64,000 nt of DNA from a phage: the NCBI GenBank assembly GCA_036439915.1, contig GCA_036439915.1_3065.1. One strand, 5' to 3'. Below are positions 60,976-64,000 of the stretch, piece after piece. The number at the start of each line of letters is the position of its first letter. Within the stretch, counting starts at the first letter, position 1. Made by a program: the position numbers and the translations under genes. The notes under the pieces were generated by a model. The model saw only the letters and a list, made by a program, of their open reading frames with translations. It did not search any database and was not told the origin of the DNA.

Positions 60976-61018
60976 TTCATTCTCCAAGTTGTTTTCTGTA
61001 TCAGTAGTTGATAGTTGT

Positions 61019-61048
61019 ATAGTACCATGGAAGGACAAGGATGTAAAC
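61019..61048 (-). promoter_or_regulatory. sigma70-type early promoter with conserved leader
   Basis: GTTTAC, 18 bp, TGGTACTAT. Confidence 0.6.
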
Positions 61049-61182
61049 AGTTTTGTGAAAAAATTTTTAAAAAGTTTTGGGGAATTCTAGGGCAGGGAGG
61101 GGAAATCAAAGGATAGGATAATATATTATAAAGGGTAGAAACTAAATGATGTCTAGAGAGGCCTGGAAAGGCCTAGATACCA

Positions 61183-61212
61183 AAAAGCCCCAACCTTTCG
61201 GCTAGGGCTAAG
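61183..61212 (-). terminator. intrinsic terminator after internal-protein-like gene
   Basis: GCCCTAGCC-GAAAGG-TTGGGGC hairpin plus TTTTTGG; near-duplicate of the hairpin at 61741. Confidence 0.55.
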
Positions 61213-61216
61213 AATG

Positions 61217-61690
61217 TTATTTGATTTGTTTAGCAGACCAAATGCGGTCTTTAATAATTTTTTGGATGTCTTCAACATACTCAAGAGAGTGAGCATGTGG
61301 GTTATCTTTGAAACTATAAGCACGAGCTAGTTTTTGGCCTTCAGTTTTGATTACTAAAAGCTCTTTAAGGATAGCTTCATATTTGGAGATAATTCCTTTA
61401 ACAATATTTTTCTCTTGTGCGACTTTAGGATCTGCTTTAGGAGCAGGTTTACCCGAAGCCTTTGCAAAAGCAGCGCCAGTAGCAACTAAACTTTTCCAGG
61501 CCATACTAACTGCATTTCCCGTAAATCCTTCCGCTTTCATGTCGCGTGCGAACTGAAATCGCGATTCATCAGAAGCATCTTTGTAAGAATATTTACCCGC
61601 TGCAATGGCTGCTTTTGCGACAGCTTGAATTTCGGTGCTAGATGCTTCATTTAACACCGCTTCATTTAAAAATTGAGTATATGATTTCAT
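61217..61690 (-). CDS. internal-protein-like protein with capsid targeting sequence
   Basis: 157 aa starting MKSYTQFLNEA; late promoter box upstream; flanked by two similar terminators. Confidence 0.6.
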   Translation of the reverse strand: MKSYTQFLNEAVLNEASSTEIQAVAKAAIAAGKYSYKDASDESRFQFARDMKAEGFTGNAVSMAWKSLVATGAAFAKASGKPAPKADPKVAQEKNIVKGIISKYEAILKELLVIKTEGQKLARAYSFKDNPHAHSLEYVEDIQKIIKDRIWSAKQIK

Positions 61691-61730
61691 CTTATTTCCT
61701 GTTTTAATTCGTGGATTTAATATACTACTA

Positions 61731-61738
61731 TATTTATA
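61731..61738 (-). promoter_or_regulatory. late promoter box TATAAATA
   Basis: exact TATAAATA on minus strand about 40 nt upstream of the 61690 start codon. Confidence 0.55.
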
Positions 61739-61740
61739 CC

Positions 61741-61772
61741 AAAAAGCCCCAACCTTTCGGTCGGGGCTAAGC
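61741..61772 (-). terminator. intrinsic terminator closing the tRNA-region transcript
   Basis: GCCCCGACC-GAAAGG-TTGGGGC hairpin plus CTTTTTGG. Confidence 0.6.
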
Positions 61773-61774
61773 CT

Positions 61775-62075
61775 TGCGGCAACCTTGTCGGGGTTCCACC
61801 TGCTAAGGCAAGTGTTTGTACGAAACGCCGGGATTCGAACCCGGTTATTAAGCAGTTGACGCTACTCAATATTTTTAAAAGGCCATATCTCGACCATATC
61901 CGAACGTTCCGTCAAAAACGCTACTCGGCTTACGGCAAAGATATTTCCTCGAATCGATAATTCTGTGCGCCGTTTCAGCTGTGATAGTAAAGAGCCAGAA
62001 CACAGTAAAACTGTGGGAGGAAACTATACTCCAGGGAACATCAGTCCGACGACTTACCGGTAGCGACCCGGTTTC
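61775..62075 (-). other. GC-enriched structured non-coding region with tRNA-like T-arm; possible small stable RNA or tRNA remnant
   Basis: no long ORF; CCGGGTTCGAATCCCGG T-arm-like element and several hairpins; no complete cloverleaf found. Confidence 0.3.
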
Positions 62076-62426
62076 TTAGTATTCTTTTAAAGAATCAATA
62101 TATTCACGGCGTTTACGCCACAAATCAATTGCTTCATACGCGGATTCAGCATTTCGAATTAGCCGGCATTTATGTAAAGACTTATGATTTTGATATTGTG
62201 TAGATAACGGAATTTTATCTAAAAGGTCTTTACGATCAAAATATTCGTAACCATCTAAACCAAATGAACGATTTTTGAGAAATTGCCAATGACCATATTC
62301 GTTTTCGACATAAACATAATCTGCATGCTGATAAAGCAAATTAATTACACGTTCAGAAATAACAGTATCATTATGATTAAAATAGAATGTTAAATCATGA
62401 ACTACTAAATAAACATTACCTTTCAT
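62076..62426 (-). CDS. hypothetical protein in tRNA region
   Basis: 116-aa ORF starting 19 nt after tRNA-Arg. Confidence 0.45.
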   Translation of the reverse strand: MKGNVYLVVHDLTFYFNHNDTVISERVINLLYQHADYVYVENEYGHWQFLKNRSFGLDGYEYFDRKDLLDKIPLSTQYQNHKSLHKCRLIRNAESAYEAIDLWRKRREYIDSLKEY

Positions 62427-62444
62427 GTTTTCCTCACTTATAAT

Positions 62445-62520
62445 TGGTCGAGGCAGTAGGGATCGAACCTACGACCTAGGACTTAGAAGGTCCTTGCTCT
62501 TCCTTCTGAGCTATGCCCCG
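62445..62520 (-). tRNA. tRNA-Arg (UCU)
   Basis: cloverleaf folded by hand; anticodon loop CUUCUAA; T-loop GGTTCGATCC; CCA encoded. Confidence 0.8.
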
Positions 62521-62524
62521 TAAT

Positions 62525-62600
62525 TGGGGTGACCGATGGGAGTCGAACCCATGACTACGAGAATCACAATCTCGAGTTCTACCAACTGAACTACGGCCAC
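62525..62600 (-). tRNA. tRNA-His (GUG) candidate
   Basis: cloverleaf with anticodon loop TTGTGAT, discriminator C, CCA encoded; no encoded G-1. Confidence 0.6.
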
Positions 62601-62715
62601 ATTAATACCTACTCCAACAATCAAGATGTCTTCACACGAAATTAAGAGAAGAGTGATCAGTTCAACCCCTATAATCGCGTCAAGTAGATATTAATGTGAC
62701 AGTTGTCACAAATTT

Positions 62716-62789
62716 GGCGGACGTGATAGGATTCGAACCTATAACCAATCGCTTAACAGGCGATCGCTCTGCCATTGAGCTACACATCC
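62716..62789 (-). tRNA. tRNA-Asn (GUU) candidate
   Basis: cloverleaf; anticodon stem ATCGC/GCGAT, loop CTGTTAA; T-loop TTCGAAT. Confidence 0.65.
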
Positions 62790-62793
62790 AAAT

Positions 62794-62880
62794 TGGTGGG
62801 GAGTGATGGAGTCGAACCACCCGAGTCGTAATGACAATGAATTTACAGTCCACACCGCTACCTCTACGGGATAACTCCCC
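62794..62880 (-). tRNA. tRNA-Tyr (GUA) candidate, type II with long variable arm
   Basis: 87 nt; acceptor GGGGAGT/ACTCCCC; loop CTGTAAA; variable stem GTC/GAC; D-arm imperfect. Confidence 0.5.
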
Positions 62881-62892
62881 TAATTCATAATT

Positions 62893-62967
62893 TGGTGGCC
62901 CTGGGTGGAATTGAACCACCATCTGGCGATTATGAGTCGCTTGCTTGAACCTTCCAGCTACAGGGCC
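62893..62967 (-). tRNA. tRNA-Ile/Met (CAU)
   Basis: acceptor GGCCCTG/CAGGGCC; anticodon loop CTCATAA. Confidence 0.7.
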
Positions 62968-62968
62968 T

Positions 62969-63044
62969 TGGTGCTGATTGACGGAATCGAACCGCCGACC
63001 TTCTCATTACAAGTGAGTTGCTCTACCTACTGAGCTAAATCAGC
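62969..63044 (-). tRNA. tRNA-Thr (UGU)
   Basis: canonical cloverleaf; anticodon loop CTTGTAA; T-loop TTCGATT. Confidence 0.8.
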
Positions 63045-63049
63045 AAAAC

Positions 63050-63139
63050 TGGCGGAGGTGATAGGATTCGAACCTATGAATCGCCGGAGCGACTGCCGGT
63101 TTTCAAGACCGGTGCATTCAACCACTCTGCCACACCTCC
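63050..63139 (-). tRNA. tRNA-Ser (UGA), type II
   Basis: 90 nt; anticodon stem CCGGT/ACCGG, loop CTTGAAA; long variable arm. Confidence 0.8.
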
Positions 63140-63141
63140 AG

Positions 63142-63215
63142 TCTCCATACAAGGATTTGAACCTTGGACCTCCTGATCCCAAATCAGGCGCTCTACCAAA
63201 CTGAGCTACACGGAG
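63142..63215 (-). tRNA. tRNA-Pro (UGG), CCA not encoded
   Basis: anticodon stem CCTGA/TCAGG, loop TTTGGGA; abuts tRNA-Ser as in the T4 Pro-Ser dimer. Confidence 0.75.
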
Positions 63216-63225
63216 TAAATTAAAT

Positions 63226-63299
<74 letters not shown>

Positions 63300-63304
63300 A
63301 AATT

Positions 63305-63391
63305 TGGTGCGAGAAGTGGGACTCGAACCCGCAAGGAAATCATTCCGCAGCATTTTAAGTGCTGTGCCTTTACCAATTTGACCATTCTCGC
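63305..63391 (-). tRNA. tRNA-Leu (UAA), type II
   Basis: 87 nt; anticodon stem CAGCA/TGCTG, loop CTTAAAA; long variable arm. Confidence 0.8.
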
Positions 63392-63392
63392 G

Positions 63393-63465
63393 CTGGGAAT
63401 AAAGGACTCGAACCTTTGCATCCTGGAATCAAAATCCAGTGCCTTACCAACTTGGCTAATTCCCA
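63393..63465 (-). tRNA. tRNA-Gln (UUG), CCA not encoded
   Basis: acceptor TGGGAAT/ATTCCCA; anticodon loop TTTTGAT; abuts tRNA-Leu as in the T4 Gln-Leu dimer. Confidence 0.75.
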
Positions 63466-63562
63466 ATTATTAACAAAGGCTCTCAAGCAAGAGCCCTTGA
63501 TGATAGAGGGTATTAATCAGTGCGGTATGAGTTAATAATAACAAATAATTCTTAAAGCATAT

Positions 63563-63850
63563 TTACCATTTATGATAATACATATTTACGATGCACTCAA
63601 GACCCAAAGGATTCTTGAAAATATCATATTCAAGAGGACCTTTTTCTGTTTCAATAAAGAAATCAAAATTTACTGTATTAAATTTATGGTCTTCCTTCAC
63701 TAATTTAACTTGAGAAGATGAACGGTCAATGTAAACTTTTTCAACTTCAAAACATGTTAAAATACCATAATCATCAATCAAGGCTTTAGCTGCTTCTTGA
63801 TCATATTTATATCCATTTTCAATGGATGATACTTTTGCATAAAGAATCAT
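63563..63850 (-). CDS. hypothetical protein (ipI position, no CTS)
   Basis: 95-aa ORF; lacks the MKTYQEFI capsid targeting sequence. Confidence 0.45.
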   Translation of the reverse strand: MILYAKVSSIENGYKYDQEAAKALIDDYGILTCFEVEKVYIDRSSSQVKLVKEDHKFNTVNFDFFIETEKGPLEYDIFKNPLGLECIVNMYYHKW

Positions 63851-63853
63851 TAT

Positions 63854-64000
63854 TTACCCTTCATCAACAATAGTATGAGTGTGGGCATTTACAATTTGCC
63901 ACCAATCAAAGCGATTAGAACCATACATTGGTTTGTTCTCATTTTCTTTGATAATGTCACGGAGTTCATCTTCGGTAGCGGCTTTCGCGATTAAATCAGC
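63854..64000 (-). CDS. partial CDS (C-terminal 48 codons; gene continues beyond window end)
   Basis: open frame reaching the window edge; ends ...NAHTHTIVDEG with H-x-T-x-like motif; sits at the T4 57B position. Confidence 0.4.
   Translation of the reverse strand, partial: ADLIAKAATEDELRDIIKENENKPMYGSNRFDWWQIVNAHTHTIVDEG

Follow-up and report, generated by a model that had tools for sequence, protein, structure and literature searches.

What is encoded by a stretch of phage DNA that lies at the end of a tRNA operon but holds no obvious gene? We address this question for a gap at positions 61775-62075 (minus strand) of a 64-kb stretch of DNA, here called the window, from a T4-like (Tequatrovirus-type) phage. 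A preliminary description, made from the letters alone, had flagged this gap between the ORF 62076-62426 and an intrinsic terminator, and had suggested a small stable RNA like T4 species C/D, a tRNA pseudogene or another tRNA-like structured RNA. Going by sequence comparison, the region is probably the distal end of the tRNA operon and encodes orthologues of T4 rnaD and rnaC, a reading to which we assign a probability of about 0.85. Both genes have been known in T4 since the 1970s, about 50 years, so that the feature is already known, and a T4-like phage carrying them is an ordinary finding. The residual value lies elsewhere: reviews and recent papers still list these RNAs as having no known function, and the family is absent from Rfam. 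The comparative fold of rnaC and its spread across genera provide a basis for cheap experiments on an old orphan RNA.

Locus layout and coding status

Eleven tRNA genes, found by ARAGORN and by matches to the Rfam tRNA model, lie upstream of the gap at 62445-63465 and in the same orientation (minus strand), with a MotA-box-like motif upstream of the cluster at 63562-63553. Between tRNA-Arg and the gap lies a 116-aa ORF (62076-62426, minus strand), which belongs to a real family of phage proteins (phrog_3355, E = 6e-53); Pfam has no family for either flanking ORF, including this one. At the other end, an intrinsic terminator, consisting of a stem-loop and U-tract on the minus strand (61768-61741), closes the tRNA/rnaD/rnaC unit. 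It is as strong as first described: seven of the 10 bp in its stem are G-C, the loop is GAAA and a U-tract follows (61768-61745), and the T4 copy is identical. The gap was also correctly seen to be GC-richer than its surroundings, at 48.2% compared with 34.6% for the window and 29.6% for ORF 62076-62426; the tRNA cluster has 47.4%.

Many GenBank entries for 'hypothetical protein' imply that the stretch 61775-62075 encodes small proteins, and several records annotate CDSs. ORFs of 32-50 aa do overlap the gap, and none above 50 aa is present in 61775-62075, in line with its initial description as free of ORFs. Against a coding role, 25 distinct homologues have stops in every frame, so that no reading frame stays open throughout, they tolerate indels of 1-2 nt, and their substitutions are pairwise-compensatory. 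The idea of degenerate coding sequence in relatives, raised in the preliminary description, finds no frame to attach to in these 25 homologues. We rejected the small-protein annotation of the stretch on the compensatory substitutions and the lack of a conserved frame, and regard small proteins from the stretch as hardly credible.

Nor do standard RNA searches name the gap. The Rfam scan proposed at the outset (Rfam 15, E <= 10, 61000-64000) gives nothing in the gap except a chance-level plus-strand match to isrK (16.5 bits), and there is no family for rnaC in Rfam 15. The gap has no minus-strand match at E <= 10, and the Rfam tRNA model has no match at this threshold within 61775-62075. ARAGORN, run on the window, calls neither a tRNA nor a tmRNA in the gap, which agrees with the earlier failure to fold a complete tRNA.

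Probable orthologues of T4 rnaD and rnaC

A blastn search with the 401 nt at 61700-62100 against 50,697 phage records matched 814 of them, and the T4 match falls on the stretch annotated as rnaC. The gap aligns at about 91% with the T4 segment 3' of tRNA-Arg and is collinear with it down to the terminator. In the T4 reference NC_000866 the order is tRNA-Arg, 1 nt, rnaD (119 nt), 6 nt and rnaC (139 nt), with rnaC described as 'species 1 RNA' and rnaD as 'small, stable RNA; species 2 RNA' (ids T4s001, T4s002). We carried these limits over to the window by alignment. On the minus strand, they give an rnaD equivalent of about 116 nt (62079-61964, aligned to NC_000866 71053-71171), a 6-nt spacer GAAUUA (61963-61958; AAAUUA in T4) and a 139-nt rnaC homologue, a tRNA-like four-arm RNA (61957-61819). 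A hairpin seen in the minimum-free-energy (MFE) fold, CACUUGC-CUUA-GCAGGUG (61814-61797), follows immediately 3' of rnaC; this trailer has an MFE z-score of -3.79, and T4 keeps the hairpin with a CUUG loop. The gap had been presented as one RNA, but it holds two, rnaD and rnaC, and a 3' trailer. The early comparison with T4 species C/D was apt, as both probably have their orthologue here.

Similarity is strongest in rnaC, which sits distal in the operon on the strand of the tRNAs, 3' of rnaD and 5' of the terminator. The rnaC segment alone matched 751 records, 491 at >=99% identity and 193 at 95-99%. Over 146 nt, the rnaC of the window shares 98.6% identity with that of T4 (NC_000866); it matches the annotated rnaC of RB3 ('rnaC: species I RNA'), RB10 and Kha5h at 100%. 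One of the two positions that differ from T4 makes an A-U pair of arm 2 a G.U pair. An rnaC covariance model has a single match in the window (164.7 bits, 61959-61814).

The window and T4 share the order rnaD, 6-nt spacer, rnaC, trailer hairpin and terminator, its distal place in the tRNA operon, and identical 5' and 3' blocks of rnaD. They differ in that T4 has 1 nt between tRNA-Arg and rnaD, whereas here the 116-aa ORF, absent from T4, intervenes, and in that the central hairpin of rnaD has another sequence, common to G4500-type phages. In T4, eight tRNAs and the species I and II RNAs derive from the primary transcript, and transcription terminates 3' of the species I RNA gene (PMC2330249). 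RNAC and RNAD have been detected by RNA-seq in T4, and RNAC has been probed by Northern blot (PMC9697503). GenBank records often label the rnaC/rnaD locus 'hypothetical protein' or 'tRNA-Lys', and we attribute many of these mislabelled records to the absence of both RNAs from Rfam.

Fold of rnaC

Homologues were collected from the phage collection, IMG/VR and metagenomes, giving 28 distinct rnaC sequences from at least 10 genera of T4-like phages (Tequatrovirus, Gaprivervirus, Karamvirus, Tegunavirus, Gelderlandvirus, Winklervirus, Moonvirus, Kanagawavirus, Mosugukvirus and Marfavirus); the remaining sequences come from phages without a genus in their record, uncultured viral contigs and metagenome contigs. 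A pattern scan of the phage collection found 11 loci, and the metagenome scan returned mainly identical T4-type copies plus one F48-like sequence.

In a plain MAFFT alignment (n = 25), 91.3% of cells pair under the hand-derived structure, compared with 35-45% after partners are shifted by 1-3 columns. Changes on both sides occur in 24 of 47 pairs, and none of 500 shuffles reached the observed values. The model-based alignment (n = 28), which leans towards the model, has 91.9% of cells paired and both-side changes in 30 pairs. The MFE of the window rnaC has a z-score of -4.07 against dinucleotide shuffles, and the single-sequence MFE fold gives the same arms. The covariation check in related phages that had been called for thus reveals a conserved structure: in T4-like phages of at least 10 genera, compensatory base changes preserve the rnaC fold.

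The fold begins with a 7-bp acceptor-like stem, formed by CGAUUCG (61956-61950, minus strand) and CGUUUCG (61827-61821, minus strand) in alignment columns 4-10 and 138-144. Two U.U mismatches are present in most members (74% of cells paired). Compensatory changes convert A-U to G-C in 11 sequences, including Karamvirus, and C-G to A-U in one. At the U.U positions, Tegunavirus and PM2 have U-A and C-G or U-A, and their stem is fully paired by Watson-Crick or G.U pairs (CGGUCCG/CGGACUG and AGGUUCG/CGAAUCU, respectively). The preliminary description had paired CGUUUCG with GAAAC near the 5' end of the gap. The complementarity is there, both with GAAAC (62075-62071) and with GAAACG (61976-61971), but covariation supports CGAUUCG as the partner: the Karamvirus U-to-C change in the 3' strand is compensated by CGAUUCG to CGGUUCG and not at GAAAC or GAAACG, and we dropped these as acceptor partners.

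The canonical T-arm-like element noted at the outset is present as CCGGG-UUCGAAU-CCCGG (61844-61828, minus strand), directly followed by the acceptor 3' strand, and the acceptor-like stem stacks on it in this fold. The T-arm is paired in about 99-100% of cells, with compensatory changes in two pairs (variants CCUGG/CCAGG and CUUGG/CCAAG). The position of the D-arm is taken by a long arm of about 70 nt (61949-61880, minus strand), with which the MFE fold independently agrees. Its helices, AGG/CCU, AUAUCU/AGAUAU, GCC/GGU, CCGA/UCGG and GCGUU/AACGU, the last closing the apical loop, occur in two sequence types with one architecture. Helices 2-5 are 88-100% paired, with 15 of 19 pairs changed on both sides (n = 28). 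The long-range helix AUAUCU/AGAUAU has the covariants UCGUCU/AGAUGA, CUGUCU/AGAUGG and AUAUCC/GGAUAU, and a local hairpin AGGA-AAUA-UCUU was dropped in its favour. Arm 2, at the position of the anticodon arm (61871-61846, minus strand), is defined by covariation and has a 10-bp stem and a 6-nt loop; both-side changes occur in 8 of 10 pairs, and 94.6% of cells are paired (n = 28).

Some GenBank records read 'tRNA-Lys(ttt)' at rnaC. ARAGORN reproduces this call only for the 1-nt-deletion variant of G4500 (acceptor ACGGAAC/GUUUCGU); we rejected the call because it needs that deletion and leaves an A.C mismatch in Karamvirus.

These data bear directly on the suggestion of a tRNA pseudogene, in which rnaC would be a decaying, functionless tRNA kept only by its place in the operon. 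A canonical T-arm and an acceptor-like stem with no anticodon arm would suit such a relic, as would the failure of tRNA finders to see rnaC in the window and the two U.U acceptor mismatches of most members. However, 684 of 751 records show >=95% identity, at least 10 genera have homologues, 24-30 pairs are kept by both-side changes, including those of the long arm, which is foreign to tRNAs, and of the loop-loop pairing described below, and the RNA accumulates as a stable species in T4 (PMC9697503). The pseudogene reading is largely refuted by the covariation, and we consider it very improbable.

Predicted pairing between two rnaC loops

The apical loop of the long arm, L1 (UUGACG, 61915-61910, minus strand), is complementary to the loop of arm 2, L2 (CGUCAA, 61861-61856, minus strand). 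In the MAFFT alignment all six pairs of this helix (helix 6) are present in each of the 25 sequences (100% paired), and in the alignment of 28 sequences 99.4% of cells are paired. Compensatory changes are seen in Tegunavirus (UUGAUG/CAUCAA, C-G to U-A) and in Marfavirus-type sequences (UUGGCG/CGCCAA, A-U to G-C), so that the covariation amounts to two lineages with two sequences each. In PM2, where both loops have changed, the pairing is down to 4 bp. The duplex energy is about -7.5 kcal/mol; when the loops are shuffled with their composition kept, 0.5% of the shuffles give fully complementary 6-mers.

We infer that L1 and L2 probably form an intramolecular kissing complex. The covariation cannot separate this from pairing between molecules. 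Searchable papers to 2025 hold no earlier proposal of loop-loop pairing in rnaC, the primary papers of the 1970s-80s being outside the scope of this search.

Genomic setting and 3' end of rnaC

The rnaC homologue occupies precisely the interval from tRNA-Trp to tRNA-Gly in Karamvirus, Gelderlandvirus and Erwinia phage COW86c. Its neighbours in Winklervirus are tRNA-Phe and tRNA-Trp, and in PM2 it comes just 5' of tRNA-Trp. A position between tRNA genes fits an RNA matured by the tRNA-processing machinery.

In the window, the 3' strand of the acceptor-like stem is followed by U-ACA-AAC at the site of N73-CCA in a tRNA. This tail is U-ACA in T4-type sequences, U-UCA in Tegunavirus and U-CCA in F48/L023 and PM2. 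T4 tRNAs without an encoded CCA gain it post-transcriptionally (PMC11143913).

Such a tail invites the idea that rnaC, after 3' trimming and CCA addition, is a chargeable tRNA-like adaptor, recognised for aminoacylation by its acceptor stem, that delivers or sequesters an amino acid. Viral tRNA-like structures and the tRNA domain of tmRNA are analogues of such an adaptor. The U-CCA tail of F48/L023 and PM2, tails that are elsewhere one or two substitutions from CCA (UACA, UUCA), the canonical T-arm and the CCA addition known for T4 tRNAs (PMC11143913) are all in keeping with it. The mature rnaC annotated in T4, however, ends in ...CGUA without CCA, there is no obvious set of acceptor identity elements (no G3.U70, and a variable 1:72 pair), and the junction is not built like that of a tRNA: the acceptor has no linker behind it, and the 'variable' region is a single nucleotide. 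The papers searched report no charging of rnaC, and we know of no such report. Charging seems very unlikely to us.

Resemblance to tRNAs and tRNA mimics

Like a canonical tRNA (RF00005), rnaC combines a 7-bp acceptor continuous with a 5-bp T-stem, a UUCGAAU T-loop and a four-way junction; it also lies within tRNA clusters, and some members have a U-CCA tail. Unlike a tRNA, it is 139 nt long and lacks a 7-nt anticodon loop, having instead a 6-nt loop that is complementary to another loop of its own. The D-arm is replaced by an arm of roughly 70 nt, nucleotides 8-9 are missing and there is a single 'variable' nucleotide. Real tRNAs score weakly against the rnaC model (10-20 bits).

Several RNAs are known to mimic tRNAs, including the tRNA-like domain of tmRNA, bacterial YrlA (Y RNA-like), mammalian mascRNA and the vtRNAs of gammaherpesviruses. 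These share with rnaC, as likened from its sequence alone, an acceptor/T-arm module handled by tRNA-processing enzymes and a non-decoding character. The differences are as clear. Unlike tmRNA, rnaC has no tag ORF or series of pseudoknots; ARAGORN finds no tmRNA, and the only tmRNA-type match in the Rfam scan (E = 7.9) lies over tRNAs, outside the gap. Unlike YrlA, it lacks a long terminal stem bearing a Ro-binding site; weak matches to YrlA (RF02553) all fall over genuine tRNAs at 62495-63279, with none in 61775-62075. To our knowledge, the long arm and loop-loop pairing of rnaC have no counterpart in the tmRNA, YrlA, mascRNA or vtRNA families.

T4-like phages of Aeromonas (44RR2.8t, 31, 25, Aes508 and others) carry an unannotated tRNA-like element of about 145 nt that resembles rnaC in size and in its place inside a tRNA cluster (between tRNA-Met and tRNA-Ile). 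Its acceptor-like stem, CGCUUGCU/AGCAAGCG, shows a compensatory change; the T-loop reads UUCGAGA, the first arm is long and the second short, and the 3' tail has the form N-CC-N. In contrast to rnaC, its loop-loop complementarity is only partial and its MFE is ordinary (z = -0.54). The element scores 7.2 bits against the rnaC model (E about 1), with no significant similarity in sequence or to the model, and in the tRNA region of 44RR2.8t this covariance model finds genuine tRNAs only (10-20 bits). Membership of the Aeromonas element in the rnaC class, as a distant relative, is unproven.

Possible role of rnaC

The functions of RNAC and RNAD are called unknown in a review of 2010, in a transcriptome/proteome study of 2022, which detected both RNAs and classed them as late, and in an experimental-evolution paper of 2025. 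Our search of the literature to 2025 on function or structure of the species 1 and 2 RNAs, with the primary papers of the 1970s-80s outside its scope, likewise returned only 'function unknown'.

The comparative data offer a starting point. We suggest that rnaD and rnaC would be cut from the polycistronic tRNA transcript by host tRNA-processing enzymes, with RNase P making the 5' end of rnaC; this last step is suggested by the tRNA-like acceptor/T-arm half and by the tRNA genes on either side of rnaC in other genera. Work of the 1970s-80s from the Abelson, McClain and Apirion laboratories reportedly showed that RNase P cleaves species 1 RNA at its 5' end. Kissing between L1 and L2 would lock the loop equivalent to the anticodon loop and leave rnaC unable to decode, and the acceptor/T-arm half might then occupy a tRNA-binding factor of host or phage, as a decoy or modulator. 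With low confidence, we put forward tentatively that rnaC may be a non-decoding tRNA mimic that acts through its acceptor/T-arm on such a factor. If so, it could for example be a decoy or inhibitor of a host tRNA-binding enzyme or of a tRNA-targeting defence nuclease, and a trans-acting mimic of this kind would explain why rnaC always travels with phage tRNA genes.

A cis-acting role would explain the same company differently. Here the tRNA shape would serve as 'punctuation' that recruits RNase P and 3' nucleases to the transcript for maturation of adjacent tRNAs or of mRNA ends, with the released RNA a by-product. In agreement with this, rnaC always lies within or ends a tRNA operon, is directly flanked by tRNAs in several genera, and has in its acceptor/T-arm half a minimal type of RNase P substrate (PMC11143913). 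Punctuation, however, needs the acceptor/T-arm only, yet the long arm, arm 2 and the complementary loops are equally conserved and covarying; the adjoining tRNAs are already RNase P substrates that need no helper, and in T4 the RNA has the stability and abundance to be seen on Northern blots (PMC9697503). We consider the punctuation role unlikely.

The non-decoding mimic can be extended to a fuller, also doubtful picture, in which rnaC would represent an uncurated, tRNA-derived family with an anticodon-equivalent loop permanently sequestered by kissing with the tip of an enlarged D-arm, an ancestral U-CCA end and a trans-acting role, and in which the Aeromonas element would be a distant member. 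The elements of rnaC that can be tested are its acceptor/T-arm, the complementary loops and the two arms that bear them, the U-CCA tail of some lineages and the position between tRNAs.

rnaD

rnaD is found only beside rnaC, in Tequatrovirus and Gaprivervirus relatives. It consists of a conserved 5' block of 44 nt and a conserved 3' part of roughly 25 nt (...AUCACAGCUGAAACGGCGCACA), which ends in GGCGCACA, with a variable central hairpin between them. The central 45-50 nt are unrelated in sequence to those of T4 rnaD, yet also form a hairpin; among relatives there are three unrelated sequence variants of the centre, each folding as a long hairpin. The MFE of rnaD is ordinary (z = -0.12 in the window and -0.83 in T4).

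Hairpin 1, ACCGG-GUCGCUA-CCGGU (62072-62056, minus strand), is seen in both the MFE and the RNAalifold structures and is invariant in all rnaD carriers. The two hairpins singled out in the preliminary description are both present, and both lie within rnaD. CACAG-UUUUA-CUGUG (62015-62001, minus strand) is the tip of the central hairpin, in the variant common to the window and G4500. AGUC-GUCG-GACU (62054-62043, minus strand) competes with a long-range pairing in the RNAalifold consensus, in which GUCGUCG pairs with CGGCGCAC (about 61972-61965) and closes a rod-like molecule. GUCGUCG and CGGCGCAC are both invariant, which makes covariation blind to the choice between the two. We infer that rnaD is probably a hairpin RNA of rod-like shape, confined to Tequatrovirus and Gaprivervirus relatives.

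In the window, the stop codon of the 116-aa ORF abuts the conserved 5' block of rnaD. G4500 has the same order of ORF and rnaD, as do other relatives that carry the 3' end of the ORF upstream. With this ORF intervening, either the 5' end of rnaD is made otherwise here than in T4, or rnaD is a portion of the 3' UTR of the ORF; in the phage of the window it might thus be a 3'-UTR structure only. The 2025 experimental-evolution paper reports a convergent SNP in rnaD that arose as a T4-like phage adapted to a semi-permissive host.

The tail that follows the acceptor-like stem of rnaC, the counterpart of T4 species 1 RNA, varies between relatives: it reads U-ACA in T4-type phages and U-UCA in Tegunavirus, and a genuine U-CCA is encoded after the stem in the homologues of Klebsiella phage F48 (L020 1498-1644; L-numbers denote stretches of relatives' phage DNA, with coordinates within each stretch) and Pectobacterium phage PM2 (L044 177-322), as well as in the homologue of L023. 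In PM2 the acceptor stem is paired throughout and the loop-loop complementarity is shortened. The homologue of Serratia phage LC53 (L021 1424-1570) has a non-canonical T-loop, UGCAUCC, as opposed to UUCGAAU elsewhere, and the GG directly before the CCU strand, invariant in the other rnaC homologues, is changed to CG. These two changes may hint at a tertiary contact of the GG with the T-loop of rnaC; such a putative contact would resemble the D-loop/T-loop contact of tRNA.

Many public records, among them those of phage G4500 (L002 2189-2282) and G2133, place either a 'tRNA-Lys(ttt)' or 'hypothetical protein' coding sequences at the rnaC locus. We reject the tRNA-Lys label as an ARAGORN artefact, the call being triggered by a 1-nt deletion.

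An unannotated element of approximately 145 nt lies between tRNA-Met and tRNA-Ile in Aeromonas phage 44RR2.8t (L036 16553-16701) and is also present in L037-L042. It is 76-100% conserved across 45 T4-like phage records (43 Aeromonas and two Stenotrophomonas). An 8-bp acceptor-like stem, with a compensatory change, is joined by a T-loop of sequence UUCGAGA, by a long first arm and by a short second one, and the 3' tail has the form N-CC-N. The element is a possible distant analogue of rnaC, but the covariance model of rnaC gives it just 7.2 bits.

In the operon that carries rnaC, the first tRNA gene has a MotA-box-like motif, ATATGCTTTA, approximately 90 nt upstream of it (63553-63562, minus strand), consistent with T4, for which a middle promoter has been described upstream of the tRNA cluster (PMC2330249). 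Within the operon, tRNA-Asn and tRNA-His are separated by 114 nt (62601-62714, minus strand); this spacer has a minimum free energy of -32.7 kcal/mol, far more stable than shuffled sequence (z = -4.36), and its predicted fold contains a 13-bp closing stem and a 6-bp hairpin. The spacer has no match in Rfam; it may be a further structured RNA or a processing element.

In T4, tRNA-Arg and rnaD (species 2 RNA) are only 1 nt apart, whereas in the window a 116-aa ORF (62076-62426, minus strand; phrog_3355), for which Pfam holds no family, is inserted between them, its stop codon directly adjoining the conserved 5' block of rnaD. At the other end of rnaD, the segment UGAAACG (61977-61971) is complementary to the 3' strand of the rnaC acceptor stem, CGUUUCG (61827-61821), both on the minus strand. 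In the rnaD-rnaC precursor before processing, this potential 7-bp pairing, one G.U included, could rival the imperfect acceptor stem. The two segments show essentially no variation among rnaD-carrying phages, and covariation is therefore uninformative on the pairing.

The operon terminator has a second, near-identical copy at 61209-61186. The two copies flank a 157-aa ORF (61217-61690), which matches phrog_2280 and no Pfam family, and a T4 late-promoter motif, TATAAATA (61738-61731). Given that this cassette (61217-61738) is missing from T4, it looks like a gene inserted through terminator duplication. The N-terminus of the ORF, MKSYTQFLNEA, resembles the capsid-targeting sequence of T4 internal proteins.
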